DNA of 23,545 bases, taken from assembly GCA_043753995.1 (NCBI GenBank), contig JAYUVP010000179.1, forward strand, positions 1 through 23,545, read 5' to 3'. The position numbers were made by a program, and so were the translations under genes. Numbering within the stretch: the first letter of the stretch is position 1; every line of letters starts with the position of its first letter. The notes under the pieces were generated by a model. That model saw only the letters and a program-made list of their open reading frames with translations. It was not told the origin of the DNA and made no database searches. The DNA comes from Fibrobacterota bacterium. GTDB lineage: Bacteria; Fibrobacterota; Fibrobacteria; UBA11236. Positions 760 to 20,018 of the stretch are shown one piece after another.

Positions 760-1359
760 ATGCGCAACGTCGAACGTACCAAGTCCAATATCCTCAAGGC
801 CGCAGGGCATCTCTTGGCTAAAAAAGGTTTTCGCGCTTTGGGAATAAGCGCCATCGCGGCTCAGGCCAAGGTGGGTAAACCTCTCCTTTATCGCTATTTC
901 GGCGGTCTTCAAGGCCTGCTCGCAGCTTATGGCAATAGCCACGATTTTTGGCCCCCCAGCGAGGAGTTGTTCGAAGCCGATCTCCAATCCCCCAAACGCA
1001 TGAGCTACGGGGCTTATGCCGAAGGATTTCTCGTGCGCTTCGTAAAAGCCCTACGCAAACGCCCCCTCACCCGTGCCGTATTAGCATGGGGGCTCATCGA
1101 GAAAAACGATCTCACTCTTCAAATGGACGACGTACTACGCCAACGGGGTCGTGCTGCAACGGCGCAATTGCGAGAAAGGGTGCAACCCCCCGCGGATGTG
1201 GATACGGCTGCGGTCAATGCCATTCTGCTCGCAGGTATTTTTTACCTGACCATCCGCTCCGGCGTCACCGGTGAATTTGCGGGCCTCTCATTGCAAAGCG
1301 AAAGTGATTGGCAGCGCGTCGAAGCAACCTTACAACACCTCGCAAAAACAGCCTATTAG
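760..1359 (+). CDS. TetR/AcrR family transcriptional regulator
   Basis: N-terminal HTH ILKAAGHLLAKKGFRALGISAIAAQAKVGKPLLYRYFGG; 199 aa. Confidence 0.95.
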   Translation: MRNVERTKSNILKAAGHLLAKKGFRALGISAIAAQAKVGKPLLYRYFGGLQGLLAAYGNSHDFWPPSEELFEADLQSPKRMSYGAYAEGFLVRFVKALRKRPLTRAVLAWGLIEKNDLTLQMDDVLRQRGRAATAQLRERVQPPADVDTAAVNAILLAGIFYLTIRSGVTGEFAGLSLQSESDWQRVEATLQHLAKTAY

Positions 1360-1362
1360 ACC

Positions 1363-1403
1363 GAGAGACCGAGAAGGCAGCCCAGTGATTACCTCTTTTT
1401 TCA
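1363..1403 (+). repeat. Degenerate junction-site copy lacking the 77-bp hairpin module
   Basis: 1363-1382 matches 2139-2158 at 17/20 and 1383-1403 matches 2236-2256 at 18/21. Confidence 0.6.
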
Positions 1404-1406
1404 AAA

Positions 1407-1424
1407 TGTTACTCATCGGTAACA
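1407..1424. promoter_or_regulatory. Putative TetR operator 2
   Basis: TGTTACtcatcgGTAACA. Its reverse complement GTTACCGATGAGTAAC matches operator 1 GTTACCGTACAGTAAC at 13/16. Confidence 0.75.
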
Positions 1425-1438
1425 CATAACCACATTCA

Positions 1439-2233
1439 ATGGAGTCCTCCATGAAATCCAATAAACTTATCGGCGCAGCATTCATAACATTTCCCATTGC
1501 CATTAACTTTCCGTTTGCGATGTTGGCGAGTCGCTTCGACTATCCCGACATCTTGCGCGCGCCCGCAGGCCAAGTACTCGAGCGCTTTCACGCCGGCGGA
1601 ACATCGCTGGTTCTCATTTGGTATGCCTTTGCCATCACCATGATTCCAGTTTTGGCGGCCATGCTGGCCTTGCCCTTACTGCCAGGCAGCGGCAACCGCT
1701 TGCGGCTTGGAGTCGCAACAACCTTTGGCGCCATCGCCACCGTATTTCAAATCCTGGGACTCATACGTTGGACCTTTGTTGTTCCCGTGCTCGCCAATAT
1801 TTACACCGATCCAAATTCCACCGAAGCCATGCGCACCTCAGCCGCGGTCACGTTTGCTGCGTTTCACCAATATGCTGGAGTCGCCATTGGCGAGCATTTG
1901 GGCCAGCTCTTCACCGCGATTTGGATGGGGATGCTCGGATTCGAAATGCTACGTGCACCCTTGTTTCGCGCATGGTTGGGTTGGTTGGGTCTTGTGGGCG
2001 CCATCCTGTGGATCATTGGCCTTGCCGAAGGATTTGCCACCGTATTGCCGTTTCATCCCGGCATCCTTGCGGCCGTGGCTCCGGTAGCGTTTCTGGTCAT
2101 GGGCATCTGGATGATATGCCTTGGCGTGGTCTTGTGGAGAGAGACCGGGGAGGAAGCCGAGGCCGACCGTACCCAGCGCAGCGGGCAGAAAATCGGCGGG
2201 CCGAGGCGGGGAGGGGCGAAGCCACTCCCGTAA
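1439..2233 (+). CDS. DUF4386-like integral membrane protein with a repeat-derived C-terminal tail (start 1439 or 1451)
   Basis: FDYPDILR and IGEHLGQLFT motifs, about 6 hydrophobic helices; ends EADRTQRSGQKIGGPRRGGAKPLP. Confidence 0.85.
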   Translation: MESSMKSNKLIGAAFITFPIAINFPFAMLASRFDYPDILRAPAGQVLERFHAGGTSLVLIWYAFAITMIPVLAAMLALPLLPGSGNRLRLGVATTFGAIATVFQILGLIRWTFVVPVLANIYTDPNSTEAMRTSAAVTFAAFHQYAGVAIGEHLGQLFTAIWMGMLGFEMLRAPLFRAWLGWLGLVGAILWIIGLAEGFATVLPFHPGILAAVAPVAFLVMGIWMICLGVVLWRETGEEAEADRTQRSGQKIGGPRRGGAKPLP

Positions 2234-2291
2234 CCCATTGATTACGTCTTTTATCAGTTACGTCGCGGAAGCAGGCCTTTCCATTTGGCGC
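2159..2291 (+). repeat. 133-bp direct repeat, copy 1 (hairpin module + palindromic core + orphan copy of the eamA 3' end)
   Basis: Ungapped alignment to 4376-4508 with 8 mismatches; the minus strand reads AKWKGLLPRRN*. Confidence 0.97.
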
Positions 2292-2354
2292 ACCGCTCGG
2301 TGATTTCGACGCTGGCGAAGCGTCACACCGGGGACGGAATGGGGGGCTTGTTTT

Positions 2355-2374
2355 CAGGATTGTAACAGGATTGT
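2355..2374 (+). repeat. CAGGATTGT x2 with 11-bp period (integrase arm-type site or transcription-factor site)
   Basis: CAGGATTGT-aa-CAGGATTGT at 2355-2363 and 2366-2374. Confidence 0.6.
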
Positions 2375-2467
2375 GTCTTGAATGGGCCTAATCCGCCGAA
2401 TACGTTTTCCATTGTCTTAACTATCCTCCATCTCCAAATACAACCCGAGTCGTACTCTCTCAAAGAA

Positions 2468-4450
2468 ATGATCCTAAAACGCTTTTTTGTTTGCCTTTCC
2501 TTCGTGTGGATTTCCTGCGGAGGCCCTCCGCCTTTACTCAAGTACCAGCCAGAGAATACCCCATCTTCCAGTGACTATCCCGGTCAGGAAGCCGTGGTTC
2601 TGGAAGATTTTTCCAAATCGGATTTTTTCTGGCACGAAGACGGGCAGGGCTATTTCACTACCGTCCAGCGGGAAGTCATTAAGATATTCAGTCATCCTGA
2701 AAATCATTCCAACCGTTTTATCTATCTGGGCAAAGGCGATGAATTGCAGCGCCTCGACGGTTTCGTTCTTTCCCCCGATGGAAACATCCAGAAATTGGAT
2801 AAGCAGCATATCTTGGATCAGCAAGGAATTACGGACGGAGTGCTGCTTCATTCGGATGCGCACATCAAGAAGCTGGTATTTCCCGGAGTAGTCCCCGGTT
2901 CCATCCTCTTCCTGGAAACCCATACCGTCCGCCAGTCTGGATTAGCTATCCACGATTGGGAGCCGCAGCGAGAAATTCCAGTCCGCGAGGCGAGGTATAT
3001 CCTCAATGCCCCCTTAAAGCTTTTCATTTCCAAGAAAGAAGGAGGCCATGGATGGAACTGGCGTTACGTGACTTACAATGGATCCGCTGTAGATCCGGTG
3101 CGCAGGTCCGTACGCGGATCCGTCGTCACCTATGACTGGTCTTTTCGTGACATCCCGCCACTTAAGAACGAATCATTCATGCCCCCACGGGAAAACTTCG
3201 CCCTCAAACTCGCTTTCGCGCCTCCTGACTTCAAGACCTGGACCGAATTGGGGGATCTCTATCTGGAGCGATATTTCCGACCGAAGTTCAAGATCTCGCC
3301 TTTGATTCGTCGCATCGCTGACTCACTCAGGACTGAGCATGCGAAGGACAGGGATTTTGTCCGGGCGGCATTGGAATTGGTCAGGTCCTTACGCTATGTC
3401 GCCTTGAATATCGGCGAATCGGGGCTTGAGCCGGACGCCCCGGAGACCGTGTATCAGAACCGCTACGGCGATTGCAAGGGCAAGACGTCGCTGCTATTGG
3501 CTTTGTTGCAAAGCGAGGGCATTCCATCCTGGCCTGCTTTGATATTGACGCGCAAAGCCGGAGTCACGGATTCGGAATTCGTTTCCTTCCACTACAATCA
3601 CATGATCGCAGCATTGCGAATTTCTCCGGCGGAAACCCTGTGGGTCGATCCGACCGAAAACGTCTCTCCGCTAGGACGACTGCCCGCGGAGTGCACTGGC
3701 CGCGAAGCCTTGCTCCTAAGCGATGGAGAGAGTCGCATTGTGACGACGCCATTCTACGCCTCCCGGGACAACGCCATCAAAGCCTTGACACGCGTGGCCA
3801 TCCGCCCTGGACAGGATACTGCTTATTATGAATGCTCCATTTGGTTAACGGGTGAACCCAGGCGCAAGGCCTTGTATCAGATCCACAACGAAGCCGACGC
3901 CACGGCATCCCTGGCCACGGCCTTCCTGTTCAGCAATACTCTGGGCGCCTTCCTTGTCTCCCCGAAACATACTGAGAAGGGTGATACCCTGGAGCTGCAT
4001 TTCCAGCTACGCTACCCGCTTGACCGGGGTAACCCCCAGTTTCCGGAAAGCCCGTTGTCGCTTATCCGACTGGATCCATTCATTTCCGTTCCGAGCCGGA
4101 ATTTTCCCTTGGATTTGGATTTTCCATTCGAGGCCTCCGAAGACATCAGCCTATCCTTGCCCAAGGGGTTCCGTCACCCCGTGACCGAACCTTTGGAAAT
4201 GGAAAACGCACTGCTCAGGATGAGCCGGTCCACCGACACGTCGGCTTCTGGAGCTTGGACCCGGAAACGGTTTTCGCTGCTGGCCGACATCGTCCCAGCG
4301 CGGGACTATCCTGAATTCCGTTCTGCTCTGGAAACCTGGCAACGGCGGAATAGCCGGTTCGTTTTCCTGACCCCGGAGGCCGACCGTACCCAGCGCAGCG
4401 GGCAGAAAATCGGCGGGCCTAGGCGGGGAGGGGCGGAGCCACTCCCGTAA
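2468..4450 (+). CDS. DUF3857 + transglutaminase-like domain lipoprotein with a repeat-derived C-terminal tail
   Basis: ATG 2468 gives the signal MILKRFFVCLSFVWISC. Motifs LRYVALNIGE, YGDCKGK (Cys), YNHMI (His), WVDPT (Asp). Ends EADRTQRSGQKIGGPRRGGAEPLP. Confidence 0.88.
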   Translation: MILKRFFVCLSFVWISCGGPPPLLKYQPENTPSSSDYPGQEAVVLEDFSKSDFFWHEDGQGYFTTVQREVIKIFSHPENHSNRFIYLGKGDELQRLDGFVLSPDGNIQKLDKQHILDQQGITDGVLLHSDAHIKKLVFPGVVPGSILFLETHTVRQSGLAIHDWEPQREIPVREARYILNAPLKLFISKKEGGHGWNWRYVTYNGSAVDPVRRSVRGSVVTYDWSFRDIPPLKNESFMPPRENFALKLAFAPPDFKTWTELGDLYLERYFRPKFKISPLIRRIADSLRTEHAKDRDFVRAALELVRSLRYVALNIGESGLEPDAPETVYQNRYGDCKGKTSLLLALLQSEGIPSWPALILTRKAGVTDSEFVSFHYNHMIAALRISPAETLWVDPTENVSPLGRLPAECTGREALLLSDGESRIVTTPFYASRDNAIKALTRVAIRPGQDTAYYECSIWLTGEPRRKALYQIHNEADATASLATAFLFSNTLGAFLVSPKHTEKGDTLELHFQLRYPLDRGNPQFPESPLSLIRLDPFISVPSRNFPLDLDFPFEASEDISLSLPKGFRHPVTEPLEMENALLRMSRSTDTSASGAWTRKRFSLLADIVPARDYPEFRSALETWQRRNSRFVFLTPEADRTQRSGQKIGGPRRGGAEPLP

Positions 4451-4508
4451 CCAATTGATTACGTCTCCTATCAGTTACGTCGCGGGAGAAGGCCTTTCCA
4501 CTTGGCGC
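4376..4508 (+). repeat. 133-bp direct repeat, copy 2 (includes the functional eamA 3' end)
   Basis: 125/133 identical to 2159-2291, offset 2217 bp. Confidence 0.97.
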
Positions 4509-5379
4509 GCAAGGCTTCGCCATAAAGCATCAGGAAAACGCCCGCCAAGATCAGCGGCAGTCCAGCCCAAAGGTAGGGCATGGCTTTTTCTCCCATGATC
4601 ATTCCCAGCATCACGGCGATGGCAGGATTGACCAAGGCATAGCTGACCACGCGCGAAGCCGGCTCATGCTGAATGAGATAACCGTAGGCAACGAAGGCCA
4701 GGCTGCCGGGCACAATGAGATAAAGGAGACCGAGCCAACTTGCGGTGGAGACAGCCGAGAAGTCAGGCCACGGACCACGAAAGAACAAGGCGTAAGAAAG
4801 CAAGCCCCAAAGCCCACCCAGCAGGCTTTGCAATCCACCGGCGATCACCACGTCGGGATAGGCTGGCAGCTTTTTGCCCAGGCTGGTGCCCAAGGCCCAA
4901 CTCGTCACCGCAGCAAGTATGAACCAGGTCGAGCGATTCAAACTAGTGAAGAGGCTGCGCCCGTCAAAGAGGACCAAGGCCACGCCGACAAGCCCCAAGG
5001 CAATGCCGAAGAGACCCAAAGGCGCGACCTTGATCTTGAGCAAGAGGCGATTGAACACCGCCACAGCCAGCGGAGTCGAAGCGATGATGAGGGCAGCGAG
5101 ATAGCTGTCGACCTTGACTTCGGCCCACGTGACCATGCCATTACCGAGCAATAAAAGCAATACCGAAAGAAGAAAGGTGGTGCGCCACTCGGCAGCGGAA
5201 GGAGCGCGGCGCCATCGCCCTAGGGCCTTACCTAAGGCCAAGAGCATGATACCGCCGAGAGAGAATCGGATGCCAACCACCAAGGCGGGATGCAGGGTAT
5301 GCACGCTTTCCTTGATGGCGAAATAGGTGGAGCCCCAGACTATATAAAGGGTGGCATAGGCGAAAAGCTTTGGGAACAT
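4471..5379 (-). CDS. EamA/DMT family transporter (YedA-like)
   Basis: LYIVWGSTYFAIK, GSLAFVAYGYL and SYALVNPAIAVMLG motifs; about 10 TM helices. Confidence 0.95.
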   Translation of the reverse strand: MFPKLFAYATLYIVWGSTYFAIKESVHTLHPALVVGIRFSLGGIMLLALGKALGRWRRAPSAAEWRTTFLLSVLLLLLGNGMVTWAEVKVDSYLAALIIASTPLAVAVFNRLLLKIKVAPLGLFGIALGLVGVALVLFDGRSLFTSLNRSTWFILAAVTSWALGTSLGKKLPAYPDVVIAGGLQSLLGGLWGLLSYALFFRGPWPDFSAVSTASWLGLLYLIVPGSLAFVAYGYLIQHEPASRVVSYALVNPAIAVMLGMIMGEKAMPYLWAGLPLILAGVFLMLYGEALRAKWKGLLPRRN

Positions 5380-5585
5380 ATCTCCATGATAGCTTCTCTA
5401 AATGATTTGGTTTGCCTGAGATAAATTTTGAGAATGACTCTAAAATATCCCCATAGGCGCACCTAAGGTCCGAACTCAAGGACTGGATCTCGGGAAAAAG
5501 CAGGCCTATGATTGGCCGGTCGGGGTGTTATCCAATCTCAAAATGGGCATCGCTTTGATTCCAAAAGGAAGGTAGGCTTGATCCC

Positions 5586-7271
5586 ATGACGACATCTCAT
5601 TCGCTACGACAGGCCATACGACAAATCACGGCCGATGATAGAGCTTTCGTCGCCTCGTCCAATCAGGCATTACCCAAACGCGCAGCCAATCTTGGCGGGC
5701 TTGAGCCCTTCAGTGGAACCTGGAATATCACGCAAGCCAGGCATTTGCTGCGCCGATGCCTATTCGGCTTTACCGAAGCCCAAGCCAAAGTCTTCGCGGG
5801 AGCCACCTTGTCGGAAGCGGTCGACTCTCTACTCAGTTTTCCCACCGATCCGCCCACTCCCCCACTGAATGTGAATGCTTCGGAGTCGGCCATAGCTATC
5901 GGCGAAACCTGGGTGACAGCCGCCTACGACAGCACCTTGAATTTCCAAAGGGGAGTCTCCCTTCAATCGTGGTGGATGGGACTTCTTCTTAACCAAGAGG
6001 CGAACCTTCGCGAGAAGATGACTTTTTTCTGGCACAATCATTTTGCCTGCGAAATCGACGCCGCCGGTGACGCACGCTACATGTACAACCAAAATGTCTT
6101 GCTAAGAAAATCTTGTCTCGGCAATGTCAAGACCTTGGCCAAGGACATCAGCTTGGATTGCGCCATGCTGCGGTACTTGAACGGCAATACGAATACCGCG
6201 AAAAGTCCGAATGAGAATTATGGCCGCGAGCTCCTCGAGCTTTTCACTATCGGCAAGGGACCGGAAATATCGGCGGGCAATTACACTCATTACACCGAAG
6301 ACGACGTGAAGGCCGCAGCGCGCATCTTGACCGGATTCAAGGATGTGCGCGAAACCATGACGTCGACTTTCACGGACAAGAATCACGATGCCGGAGATAA
6401 GACTTTTAGTTCGGCTTTCGGAAATGCGGTGATTAAAGGCCTCCCTGGCGCGGAAGGCGCTTCGGAGCTGGATAGCCTAATCAATCTCATTTTCGTCCAA
6501 GCCGAGACGGCGCGGCAATTCTGTCGCAAGCTTTATCGTTACTTCGTGTACTATGTCATCGACGCCGAAACCGAGAAGAATGTCATCGAGCCCCTGGCAA
6601 AGCTATTGCGCGATGGCAAATATGAAATCAAACCCGTCCTCGCGGCCCTCCTCAAGAGCGCGCATTTTCACCATGCCGCAAACCAAGGAAACATGATCAA
6701 GACGCCGCTCGATCTGATTGCGGGATTCGCCAAGCAGGCGGCGGTTCAATGGCCCGATCGCGCAGCCATAGCCGAGTCCTATGCTATTTGGCGATCCATG
6801 CAGGACCAATCCTCGCAAATGCAATTGGAGTTGCTCGATCCCCCCAATGTGGCAGGTTGGCCATGCTATTGGCAAGAGCCTGGGTATTATCAGCTTTGGA
6901 TCAATAGTGCCACTTTGCCCACGCGTTTGCGCTTCACCGATCGTTTTCTAAGCAACCAGAAATGGGTTTCGGGTGTTGGGACCGCAACCTTGGATGTCTT
7001 GGCCTTGACCGAGACGGTCAGCGACCCTATTGACGTTGTCCTTTTGGTGAGCGAAATGGCGGGACGATTTTCGTCATTGTCGCTCACAGAAAACCAACTC
7101 ACCTATTTGAAGGATTCCCTGCTGGATCAATTGCCCGATTATGAATGGGGCGTAGACTGGGAGAGGTATACCAAGGACAAAACCAATGCCGCCGCTCGCA
7201 AGGCTGTCGAGACGCGCTTGAAGACTTTTTTCCGGGCCTTGACGGCCATGGCCGAATACCAACTCGCTTGA
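5586..7271 (+). CDS. DUF1800 family protein
   Basis: ARHLLRR, LREKMTFFWHNHF, PNENYGRELLELFTIG, PPNVAGW, EYQLA end; adjacent to DUF1501. Confidence 0.95.
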   Translation: MTTSHSLRQAIRQITADDRAFVASSNQALPKRAANLGGLEPFSGTWNITQARHLLRRCLFGFTEAQAKVFAGATLSEAVDSLLSFPTDPPTPPLNVNASESAIAIGETWVTAAYDSTLNFQRGVSLQSWWMGLLLNQEANLREKMTFFWHNHFACEIDAAGDARYMYNQNVLLRKSCLGNVKTLAKDISLDCAMLRYLNGNTNTAKSPNENYGRELLELFTIGKGPEISAGNYTHYTEDDVKAAARILTGFKDVRETMTSTFTDKNHDAGDKTFSSAFGNAVIKGLPGAEGASELDSLINLIFVQAETARQFCRKLYRYFVYYVIDAETEKNVIEPLAKLLRDGKYEIKPVLAALLKSAHFHHAANQGNMIKTPLDLIAGFAKQAAVQWPDRAAIAESYAIWRSMQDQSSQMQLELLDPPNVAGWPCYWQEPGYYQLWINSATLPTRLRFTDRFLSNQKWVSGVGTATLDVLALTETVSDPIDVVLLVSEMAGRFSSLSLTENQLTYLKDSLLDQLPDYEWGVDWERYTKDKTNAAARKAVETRLKTFFRALTAMAEYQLA

Positions 7272-7284
7272 AAGGCTAGTAGTC

Positions 7285-8847
7285 ATGAAAAGACGCGACT
7301 TTCTGAAGCTTGGCGCGGCCTCCGCCGCTTGGCCCATTTTGGCGGATCGCTTCGGGGCATCCGCCTGGGCCCTGGCACCCATGAATGCCATGGCCCAGCA
7401 GGGCATTGGCGATCGCATCCTAGTCGTCCTGCGGCTGGACGGGGGCAATGATGGCCTTGCCACCGTGATTCCTCTTGACCGGTACGATGCCTTGGCCAAG
7501 GCGCGGGCCAATGTCATCATACCCGCCGGGCAAAACCTGAAGCTCAATGACAAGACAGCCTTGCATCCCAAGCTCAAGGGATTACAAAACCTTTTTCAGG
7601 ACGGAAAGCTTGCCATCGTGCAAGCCGTGGGGTATCCCAACCACAACCAAAGCCATTTTCGCTCCACCGACATTTTTTTCACGGCCAGCGAATCCAACCA
7701 AGTGCTTTCGACAGGGTGGCTTGGACGTTACCTCGAACTCTTGTTCACAGGATTTCCGGAAGGCTACCCCAATTCCCAATATCCTGATCCACCCAGCATA
7801 CAAATGGGATCCGTTCTCAGTACCCTGCTCCAAGGCTCCGAAGCGCCCTTGGCCATGACGGTCAGTAATCCCGACTCGATTTACTCCCTCAAGCCCGATG
7901 GTGTGGATACGGCCCCCAATACCCCAGCCGGTCATGAACTGACCTTTATCCGCAGCATGGCCCAGCAGACTCAAAAGTATGGCGAGGCCCTGAAGGGCGC
8001 CTTGGTCAAAGCCGCAAGCAAGTCGGCGCTTTGGCCCGCGTCCGGCAATAAACTCGCCGATCAAATGCAAGCGGTGGCAAGGCTCATCGCCGGAGGCATG
8101 CGCACTCCCGTTTACGTGGTGAGTCTTGGAGGCTTCGACACCCATGCCGATCAGGTGGATGAAAAGGACTTGGCGGGAGGCCGGCACGGCGAATTAATGG
8201 CCCAAGTCGATACGGCTATCACGGCTTTCCAGGATGAATTGCGTTTGCAGGGAATGGAAGATAGAGTGATGGGCTTGACCGTCTCGGAATTCGGACGACG
8301 CATTTGGAGCAATGGCTCTCTCGGCACCGATCACGGCACTAGCGCACCCGTCCTGCTTTTCGGCAAGCCCGTCCAAGGCGGCGTGATCGGCACCAGCCCA
8401 AACATTCCCGAGAATGCGACGGTCAAGGACAATGTGCCGATGCAATTTGATTTTCGTCAGGTTTATGCGACCTTATTGCAAGAGCATCTCGGTCTAAGCG
8501 CAGCCCAAACACAAACCGTTCTGCTCAAGGCTTTCGAGAACCTGCCCCTGGTGGCTTCCGGGGTGAAATCCCCGCTCAAGCCGTTCTCCCCGGGCCTTTC
8601 GGGTCGAATGGCCTGGCGAGGGGGGCAAGCCCAAGTGAACTTTACCTTGAATCGACCCAGCCAGGTGCGCATCGGCGCTTTCGATGCCAATGGCTCTCGT
8701 GTGGGTGAGGAGAAGGCAAACCTATTCACGGGAGGCAACCATACCACGACGCTTGATTTGCCTTCAACCTCTCCGGGGCATTTGCTCGTGCGGCTGGAGT
8801 GCGAAGGCCAGACCTTTAGCCAATGGGTGATGCGCCAAGGGCAATAG
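7285..8847 (+). CDS. DUF1501 family protein with Tat signal and T9SS-CTD-like Ig tail
   Basis: MKRRDFLK, GGNDGL, SHFRSTDI, GGFDTHA, SEFGRR, GTDHG, DFRQVYATLL, followed by an extra beta-rich tail of about 95 aa. Confidence 0.93.
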   Translation: MKRRDFLKLGAASAAWPILADRFGASAWALAPMNAMAQQGIGDRILVVLRLDGGNDGLATVIPLDRYDALAKARANVIIPAGQNLKLNDKTALHPKLKGLQNLFQDGKLAIVQAVGYPNHNQSHFRSTDIFFTASESNQVLSTGWLGRYLELLFTGFPEGYPNSQYPDPPSIQMGSVLSTLLQGSEAPLAMTVSNPDSIYSLKPDGVDTAPNTPAGHELTFIRSMAQQTQKYGEALKGALVKAASKSALWPASGNKLADQMQAVARLIAGGMRTPVYVVSLGGFDTHADQVDEKDLAGGRHGELMAQVDTAITAFQDELRLQGMEDRVMGLTVSEFGRRIWSNGSLGTDHGTSAPVLLFGKPVQGGVIGTSPNIPENATVKDNVPMQFDFRQVYATLLQEHLGLSAAQTQTVLLKAFENLPLVASGVKSPLKPFSPGLSGRMAWRGGQAQVNFTLNRPSQVRIGAFDANGSRVGEEKANLFTGGNHTTTLDLPSTSPGHLLVRLECEGQTFSQWVMRQGQ

Positions 8848-19334: not shown

Positions 19335-20018
19335 TCAGCCTTGGTATTCATCACAATCCCAATGATGGTGTTCGAATTTCGTGGAGTCCTTGGCGTCAAT
19401 GAATAAATTGCCGCTTTCAATTTCGAAATAGTTCGATCGGCGGATTTCATAAATCACCGGGCTTGCCTGTATTCCTTTGATAACGATGGTGTCCGCGGAG
19501 TCTCGATGAGTGGCATAAAGGATCATACCATTGGGATTTTGGTCCATGCGATGGATCGCGTATCGCGAGCTTGAATCGATTGAATCGCAAACCGAAAATT
19601 TCATTTCGCCATTCGGAGTGAAAGACGCCGTGGACTGAACGCAACGACAGTCGGTTTGGGTGTAATAATCCTTTTTATCATCGCTTTGCAATACCTGAAT
19701 GAATCGGATGGATACCAGCGATAGGGAATCCAAGGTTTTGGACTCGGCGGGCATTACCGAATTCGTTTGCGAAGGCGGTGGGGGTTTTGCGGCATCTTGC
19801 TTTTTGCAATTCAAGAAAAGCAAGCAAAGGAGTGCCAGTAAGCCTGCGCAAACTTTCCTAGTTAGACCTGGAATGGATTGAAATTTTTTGCCCTGACGTG
19901 ATGCTACGGTCCCGCCGGGGAGGTGCCCCTTGGGGCGGTGGGGGTAGGTTGAGACCCCGCAAGCGTAGCGCGGAGGCTCAGCCGAGGGGGAGGCGTCCTC
20001 CCCAATTAAATGCAGCAT
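19335..20018 (-). CDS. Hypothetical lipoprotein-like protein, start ambiguous
   Basis: RKVCAGLLALLCLLFLNCKKQ signal/lipobox-like segment at about aa 54-74, then a Pro linker and globular domain. The only upstream in-frame ATG is 20018, with SD GGAGGTG. Confidence 0.7.
   Translation of the reverse strand: MLHLIGEDASPSAEPPRYACGVSTYPHRPKGHLPGGTVASRQGKKFQSIPGLTRKVCAGLLALLCLLFLNCKKQDAAKPPPPSQTNSVMPAESKTLDSLSLVSIRFIQVLQSDDKKDYYTQTDCRCVQSTASFTPNGEMKFSVCDSIDSSSRYAIHRMDQNPNGMILYATHRDSADTIVIKGIQASPVIYEIRRSNYFEIESGNLFIDAKDSTKFEHHHWDCDEYQG
19911..20003. repeat. GC-rich multi-hairpin REP-like element
   Basis: Hairpins at 19911-19942, 19947-19983 (loop region AAGCGTAGC) and 19987-20003 (GGGGAGG-cgt-CCTCCCC). 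Confidence 0.55.

Follow-up and report, generated by a model that had tools for sequence, protein, structure and literature searches.

A C-terminal tail common to two unrelated genes of a Fibrobacterota bacterium is very probably a passively translated dispersed repeat

The window analyzed here, i.e., the whole stretch of 23,545 nucleotides (nt) of contig JAYUVP010000179.1 (contig C179), comes from the draft genome of a Fibrobacterota bacterium (GCA_043753995.1; 5.2 Mb in 356 contigs, 97% complete). It carries two unrelated genes, one encoding a DUF4386 membrane protein and the other a DUF3857/transglutaminase-like lipoprotein, the products of which end in practically the same peptide. This peptide is encoded by the first part of a 133-nt direct repeat, which was found to contain a member of a family of small dispersed hairpin elements, and the shared tail very probably results from a DNA repeat, of selfish or structural nature, being passively translated. 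The features of the locus are listed below, the bit scores of the element copies being those given by the covariance model R1 presented further on.

1439 to 2233, + strand: DUF4386 membrane-protein gene, an open reading frame (ORF) of 264 amino acids (aa); Pfam DUF4386 at residues 10-229 (87 bits); the terminal 29-30 codons, from about 2143, are those of the element
2143 to 2233, + strand: element copy A, full-length (63.8 bits, E 2.7e-10, model positions 1-80), folding into a long interrupted hairpin and a short GC hairpin
2159 to 2291, + strand: copy A of the 133-nt repeat, consisting of the element from model position 17, a spacer of 11-20 nt and a remnant of an EamA gene end
2254 to 2291, - strand: this dead remnant of an EamA 3' end (AKWKGLLPRRN plus stop), the reverse translation of which is the EamA C-terminus; no minus-strand ORF of at least 40 aa covers it
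2292 to 4375, + strand: unique segment of 2084 nt between the repeat copies, made up of a 176-nt upstream region and the body of the lipoprotein gene
2468 to 4450, + strand: DUF3857/transglutaminase-like lipoprotein gene, with a probable start at ATG 2468 and the signal MILKRFFVCLSFVWISC; the terminal 24 codons are those of the element
4376 to 4450, + strand: element copy B, placed by R1 at 4364-4450 (40.8 bits), with the first 16 model positions unmatched
4376 to 4508, + strand: copy B of the 133-nt repeat, as delimited by the direct-repeat search
4471 to 5379, - strand: EamA/DMT transporter gene (Pfam EamA), with native C-terminal codons that make up the right-hand end of repeat copy B

The search for direct repeats in the window yielded a single family, consisting of positions 2159-2291 and 4376-4508 (133 nt, 94% identical). 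Copies A and B are identical at 125 of the 133 positions, the eight mismatches being located at 2203, 2219, 2236, 2250, 2251, 2269, 2272, and 2284; the leading 44 nt are free of mismatches, the homology has an abrupt edge on both the left and the right, and two matches to this 44-mer were obtained in none of 100 shuffles of the window. According to an earlier note made from the sequence of this stretch, the two ORFs enter the repeat in the same frame at the same base (2159 and 4376) and end at the same TAA. The ORFs and the repeat alignment confirm this: entry occurs at the first base of the repeat in both cases, and both proteins finish with EADRTQRSGQKIGGPRRGGA(K/E)PLP. Within the 72 nt encoding the tail, the copies differ at two sites, one synonymous and the other responsible for the K/E difference. 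The note gave the length of the repeat-supplied tail as 24 aa, which holds for the lipoprotein but not for the DUF4386 protein: the family element begins there at 2143, 16 nt ahead of the A/B homology, so that about 29-30 residues are element-coded. The stop codon of the DUF4386 ORF is the TAA contained in the subfamily's CCCGTAACC, and the repeat extends for 58 nt past the stop of the tail, first across a spacer and then into the codons with which the convergent EamA gene natively ends. The tail peptide is hydrophilic, rich in Gly, Pro, and Arg, and has no hydrophobic segment. The proteins carrying it are predicted to be a multi-pass inner-membrane protein and a lipoprotein, respectively; in the ORF at 2378/2468-4450, DUF3857 was matched with 42.8 bits and Transglut_core with 21.9 bits, slightly below the 23-bit Pfam cut-off, and a lipoprotein-type signal is present if translation begins at ATG 2468.

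The native ends of the two genes were assessed by comparison with homologues. In each of the 11 DUF4386 homologues that were aligned, the protein stops 3-16 residues past the last helix. The closest of them, P0002 (236 aa, 87% identity), is devoid of the tail and has the C-terminus ...VVLWRAPVGTR, i.e., ...GVVLWRAPVGTR, its stop being situated six residues beyond the point at which the element starts in the window gene; the window protein reads ...GVVLWRE and then continues from 2143 with the element as ...TGEEAEADRT.... On this comparison, the element has probably taken the place of the native stop and of about six codons preceding it. In the case of the lipoprotein, the alignment with the distant homologue P0125 reaches residue 634 (RFVFL), and the junction lies at residue 637. 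A distant paralogue on contig C159 is of compatible length (655 aa), and BLASTP aligned only its core with the window protein (residues 253-446). Since both family domains finish just before the junction and the DUF4386 homologues stop close to it, a native end was probably replaced in each gene, as the earlier note had supposed.

The first 75-90 nt or so of the repeat are a member of a dispersed family of GC-rich elements about 80 nt long, which was identified with BLAST and then with iterated nhmmer searches. The third-round nhmmer profile gave 86 matches in the genome at E<=1e-3 (for example, C284:1508-1587(+), C304:19520-19599(+), and C224:37514-37592(-)), and the covariance model R1 gave 81 at E<=0.01 (150 of the 4531 candidates scored); R1 was built from 33 other copies, without A and B, yet it matched both of them. 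Since several copies are located at contig ends, the true copy number is probably higher. The consensus is approximately (T)CGCCGGTGGGGA-nnnn-GAGGCCGAC-[variable loop, 10-70 nt]-GGGCCGAG-nnnn-GGGGGAGGCGGAGCCACCCCCGAAA, where the nnnn blocks, which pair with each other, lie on either side of an invariant tandem G.A/A.G and of a GGCC/GGCC stem. The element thus folds into a long hairpin with the invariant tandem G.A/A.G in its interior, followed by a short GC hairpin. Pairing was found in 90.7% of the cells in the 33 copies, as against at most 59.7% with slid partners; 43 cells were doubly changed, versus 10.8 +/- 2.7 after shuffling (0 of 500 shuffles reached 43), and each of the four outer-stem pairs shows compensatory changes in 8-10 of 36 sequences. 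The fold energies of single sequences reproduced the two hairpins but were no better than those of shuffles (z -1.9 to +0.7). In copy A, a subfamily-specific small hairpin, GTAACC..GATTAC, runs on to about 2248 in the subfamily alignment; in copy B, the invariant GGCCGAG reads GGCCTAG (mismatch at 4420).

The element could not be assigned to any of the families with which it was compared. No model of Rfam 15 (4227 covariance models) overlapped either copy at E<=10 when positions 1900-4700 were scanned, and none matched 20 other element copies at E<=1. The Y1/RAYT transposase domain PF01797 gave no matches in this 97%-complete draft (6 of 14 control genomes were positive), which leaves its absence unproven. 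Of the 37 full-length copies compared, 25 had no direct repeat in their flanks, and the longest one measured 3 nt in 10 copies, 4 nt in one, and 6 nt in one; this equals the mismatched-flank control and gives no sign of target-site duplications. The ends of the consensus, CGCCGGTGGGG... and ...GCCACCCCCGAAA, when compared by reading, are not mutual reverse complements, as terminal inverted repeats would be. A motif scan for a longer, possibly autonomous version, based on 5' and 3' halves with complementary stems, gave loops of 10-70 nt only, and wider pairs proved to be separate neighboring copies. R1 had no matches at E<=0.001 when 120 candidates per genome were scored in 38 further genomes belonging to the order, and a strict motif scan of species representatives had none either. 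A relaxed motif scan gave at least 108 single matches in GC-rich taxa. R1 was applied to 80 of these, none of which exceeded 26 bits, versus 36-92 bits for the copies in the present genome, and the matches were taken to be due to chance. The family looks specific to this lineage, as far as these searches go, and we have filed it as a new family of the general kind known as small dispersed hairpin repeats. A literature search combining Fibrobacter and repetitive extragenic palindromic retrieved nothing relevant, and no claim that the family is unpublished is made beyond that search and the Rfam scans.

Several variants of the element were also observed. In one subfamily, the 3' hairpin has an additional internal arm of about 25 nt (GGGGGGCGTTTGGGAAGCCCGGAACGAG.GGCTGAGCCCCCC); its copies occur on contigs C65 (2602-2697, 5067-5150, 15616-15709, 24553-24646, and 36161-36264), C149 (4046-4141, 13117-13211, and 23326-23417), and C68 (9987-10079, 16441-16542, and 20007-20100), and all 11 copies listed are on the + strand of the contig, at a spacing of about 2.5-12 kb. 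Two elements on contig C55, at 5264-5346(-) and 5380-5466(+), form a head-to-head pair with 34 nt between them, which resembles an inverted pair of the kind found in bacterial interspersed mosaic elements (BIMEs). A weak covariance-model match at 19933-20007 (+) in the window (13.2 bits, E 0.31) is possibly a decayed copy.

The 86 copies are mainly intergenic: 23 lie between convergent genes, 37 between tandem genes (23 in one orientation and 14 in the other), 19 between divergent genes, and seven have a gene on one side only. Gene 3' ends are situated within 90 nt of the element in 41 of 49 cases on the right side (median 26 nt) and in 21 of 39 on the left (median 72 nt), and gene starts are farther away (medians 104 and 155 nt). 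This closeness to gene 3' ends, along with the covarying stems, would be in keeping with an element serving primarily as a functional RNA or DNA signal, such as a stabilizer in the 3' untranslated region (UTR), an unconventional terminator, or a small RNA, the overlap with stop codons then reflecting gene regulation rather than selfish spread. On the strand having the sense of both tails, G.U pairs also exceed A.C pairs (12 to 4 in 47 copies), which is only suggestive as an indication of the strand. However, the orientation with respect to transcription is inconsistent, as the tandem pairs and the copies between divergent genes attest; the element has no U-tract, and the terminator and promoter scan found nothing at copy A or B; the fold energies do not stand out from shuffles, and no Rfam family was recognized. 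This explanation would moreover leave the peptide without any function, and we take it to be very unlikely.

Only four of the 86 elements are read over at least 76 nt by a same-strand ORF, always at the C-terminal end. The DUF4386 and lipoprotein ORFs use the frame beginning 'EAD...', as does a third ORF on contig C294, whereas a fourth, on contig C117, uses a different one:

C294, 1093 to 1193 (locus L181:763-1191): element read by a 142-aa ORF with weak P-loop kinase-like matches below the cut-offs, tail EADKGSWVGRAEAGG..., ...VEADKGSWVGRAEAGG...; the ORF looks shortened by the element
C117, 26736 to 26823, - strand (locus L019:1487-2524, minus strand): element read by a 345-aa Bact_transglu_N/Transglut_core protein in another frame (RPTVPSEAAKEKQAEAGGG..., ...TPRPTVPSEAAKEKQAEAGGG...), tail ...RPTVPSEAAKEKQAEAGGGDSSPEKEKG

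Most copies have no stop codon in a given frame, 53-68 of 85 copies being stop-free in each of the six frames, and the 133-nt repeat would yield a tail, between 14 and more than 44 aa long, in each of its three forward frames. The tail itself was found nowhere else: a six-frame search of the genome with the lipoprotein retrieved it only in the DUF4386 gene, and a phmmer search with the 30-aa tail against 1,835,955,588 protein representatives retrieved only the window's own lipoprotein (E 5.7e-5).

These data bear on the suggestion made in the earlier note that the peptide might be a functional tag, i.e., an element-coded sequence recruited as a C-terminal signal for sorting, degradation, or interaction and common to both proteins. 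The identical frame and stop in the two genes, the entry of the C294 ORF in that same frame, and the fact that the tail-coding part shows just two differences in 72 nt would all fit a tag. Several observations argue against it: the read-ins are few and involve two frames, the closest DUF4386 homologue does without the tail, neither the genome nor the 1.84 billion representatives hold another carrier, the peptide shows no known sorting motif on reading, one of the two A/B differences reverses a charge (K/E), and the carriers are predicted to be located in different compartments. C-terminal tags such as PEP-CTERM, LPXTG, the C-terminal domain of the type IX secretion system, and the ssrA-like tags recur on many proteins of a genome or lineage, whereas the present tail occurs on the two window genes only. 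The note itself had reasoned that copies entered in varied frames or lying outside genes would make the tail passive read-through; as it turns out, the copies lie mostly outside genes, and ORFs run into only four of the 86, three of them in one frame and one in another, which points to passive read-through. A functional tag is in our opinion highly improbable.

The right-hand part of the repeat provides information about the history of the locus. Since EamA homologues with 82-89% identity end in ...EALRA(K/R)WKV(L/M)..R.. and the window EamA likewise in ...EALRAKWKGLLPRRN, the C-terminus of the latter is native. The last 38 nt of the repeat correspond in copy B to the final 11 codons and stop of EamA and in copy A to the dead remnant, and the three mismatches between the copies in this part are all at synonymous third-codon positions. 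Copy A has kept the whole element and copy B the whole EamA gene. Since the 133 nt include the spacer and native EamA codons, the pair originated from a local segmental duplication, not from transposition. Copy B is a 5'-truncated element joined to the lipoprotein gene by a rearrangement and no independent insertion. The other possibility raised in the note, namely capture, the breakpoint lying at the end of the gene, is a fair description as far as this copy is concerned. The 2084-nt segment had no DNA-level match elsewhere in the genome, and its composition does not deviate from that of its surroundings. When positions 1300-5500 were searched at the DNA level in 40 relatives, only the EamA gene of genome G005 was matched (73% identity), which converges there on an ABC-2-type permease without synteny; metagenome contigs searched with the EamA protein gave only distant relatives, with at most 38% identity. 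Two sediment-metagenome DNA runs from one study, one of them possibly the source, contain the stretch, whereas no RNA run is listed as containing it. One public-run contig spans 2159-4405; no alternative joint was seen in these contigs, which are assembled contigs and not raw reads and the uncovered parts of which are uninformative.

Such an architecture is also exactly what a single crossover at the 133-nt homology would produce, with the element intact in A and EamA intact in B. The 2217-bp unit made up of the repeat and the lipoprotein segment would then be a present or recent circular or exchangeable cassette recombining with a chromosomal copy of the repeat, which we think very unlikely; on this view, the contig would show the integrated form, and a chromosome without the cassette would read DUF4386 -> element <- EamA. 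The public-run contig at 2159-4405 corresponds to the unit plus a self-overlap of 30 nt, but a short-word assembly graph yields such a contig for any direct repeat, and no joint skipping the segment was seen in the assembled contigs. Likewise, the synonymous nature of all three EamA-part differences is what two functional alleles would give, but with three sites the p value is about 0.04 for position alone. Neither an adjoining recombinase among the window ORFs nor an unusual composition of the segment speaks for a cassette. A more elaborate proposal would have the two-hairpin element, by virtue of the invariant tandem G.A at its core, act as a site of recombination, the 2.2-kb lipoprotein segment between the 133-nt blocks being a cassette that integrates and excises there and the tail the scar of an undescribed cassette-exchange system in this uncultured sediment lineage; this strikes us as barely plausible.

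A few further observations were made around the repeat. A possible second 5' element fragment at 2327-2339 (ACCGGGGACGGAA) was rejected, the motif occurring four times in the genome, twice outside elements, versus about 1.6 times by chance. The spacer contains TTACGTC twice, 9 nt apart, at 2242-2248 and 2258-2264 (4459-4465 and 4475-4481 in copy B), the second occurrence overlapping the last EamA codons; a related copy on contig C9 has TTACGTC once, followed by GGGAGAA, and the convergent gene there also ends in ...RRNE. Upstream of the DUF4386 gene lies a TetR-family regulator gene, and beyond EamA a DUF1800 gene and then a 521-aa ORF (760-1359 and 5586-8847); no recombinase or transposase was found among these neighbors.

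Passive translation of the repeat is the explanation favored here. In the DUF4386 gene, a full-length element adjoins the ORF right after the last transmembrane helix, and the ORF continues through it to the TAA. The simplest history starts from an ancestral locus organized as DUF4386 -> element <- EamA. A single local event may subsequently have placed the 2084-nt lipoprotein segment and a second 133-nt copy between DUF4386 and EamA; an insertion with a 133-nt duplication, a single crossover at that homology in which the partner was either a circle or an allele entering the cell, and a homology-anchored illegitimate joining are the candidate events. The junction so created would lie two codons beyond the point at which conservation of the lipoprotein domain ends, and its agreement in frame with the other would be a one-in-three coincidence. 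Both junctions would have persisted because the functional domains were spared, the tail being tolerated and not used.

Some points weigh against this explanation. The sequence of events at the locus is no more than a reconstructed history. Copies A and B have diverged less in the tail-coding part (2 of 72 nt) than in the rest of the repeat (6 of 61), a pattern to which constraint on the element hairpins would also lead. Three of the four read-in ORFs share one frame: two of the three are linked by the duplication, and the probability that at least three of four ORFs share some frame is 1/3, which is not significant and yet still compatible with a frame preference. The gene context was derived from a gene set of our own, based on ORFs and codon scores (3887 genes covering 85% of the genome), and not from a gene finder. 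Lastly, the lipoprotein has no close homologue (27% identity at best), and its native end was deduced solely from the distant alignment and the length of the 655-aa paralogue.

Among the known classes of bacterial repeats, the repetitive extragenic palindromic (REP) sequences and BIMEs, which are mobilized by RAYT transposases, are short GC-rich extragenic hairpins that number from tens to hundreds, lie close to the 3' ends of genes, and show compensatory changes in their stems. The present family resembles them in that it consists of many dispersed, mainly extragenic copies of an imperfect palindrome. In REP/BIME sequences, the palindrome is headed by a conserved GT[AG]G tetranucleotide. The present consensus starts with (T)CGCCGGTGGGGA, and no GTAG head was found in the profile or the alignment; the unit is also longer, with two hairpins and the invariant tandem G.A, and PF01797 was not detected in the draft genome. 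[quoted passage not shown]

Fusions of gene ends with small repeats have been described in several bacteria. According to Delihas (2007; PMC2759123), RU-1, a repeat of the enterobacterial repetitive intergenic consensus (ERIC) type, is fused to the 3' end of the E. carotovora amidase gene ECA3499, where the stop has been lost and about 35 residues have been added, the orthologues being shorter. The DUF4386 gene matches this case: a conserved gene has a small dispersed intergenic repeat at its 3' end, the stop is removed, and the protein is extended past its domain. RU-1, however, belongs to enterobacteria, measures 127 bp, and has another sequence, and in the present locus the tail was passed on to a second gene via a segmental duplication of 133 nt, in which part of a neighboring gene was copied as well. 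In Coxiella burnetii, Wachter et al. (PMC5896051) describe overlaps of 2-50 bp between QMITE1 and the C-termini of six named genes; QMITE1 and QMITE2 resemble the present element, with about 50 copies located in intergenic regions and 3' UTRs, some of them overlapping C-terminal codons (PMC5896051). The QMITEs, however, are bounded by direct repeats, and QMITE2 contains a GTAG REP (PMC5896051), whereas in the present element neither target-site duplications nor a GTAG head were found. The Rickettsia palindromic elements (Ogata et al., 2000) occur mostly in frame inside ORFs, with 44 gene insertions in R. conorii, for example, as stated in a 2024 review, in which in-frame fusions by intragenic MITEs are said to be 'not unusual' (PMC10969869). 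They share with the present element the property of being palindromic repeats translated within host proteins without destroying these proteins, but here the element is unread in 82 of 86 copies and the fusions are at the very C-terminus. Since gene-end fusions of this kind involving ERIC/RU-1, QMITE1, and the Rickettsia elements are in print, the phenomenon is already known.

The finding looks like an ordinary by-product of repeat DNA clipping gene ends and opens no long-standing question. It provides a clean, dissected case of dispersed repeats reshaping gene ends, in which a native stop probably gave way to one element, and a subsequent duplication of 133 nt tailed a second, unrelated gene and fossilized the end of a third. 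It also serves as a warning for annotation, in that a peptide common to unrelated proteins may be translated repeat DNA and not a domain or signal. The element family, with its approximately 80 copies, its apparent restriction to the lineage, and no detectable transposase, could be used to mark this uncultured lineage.

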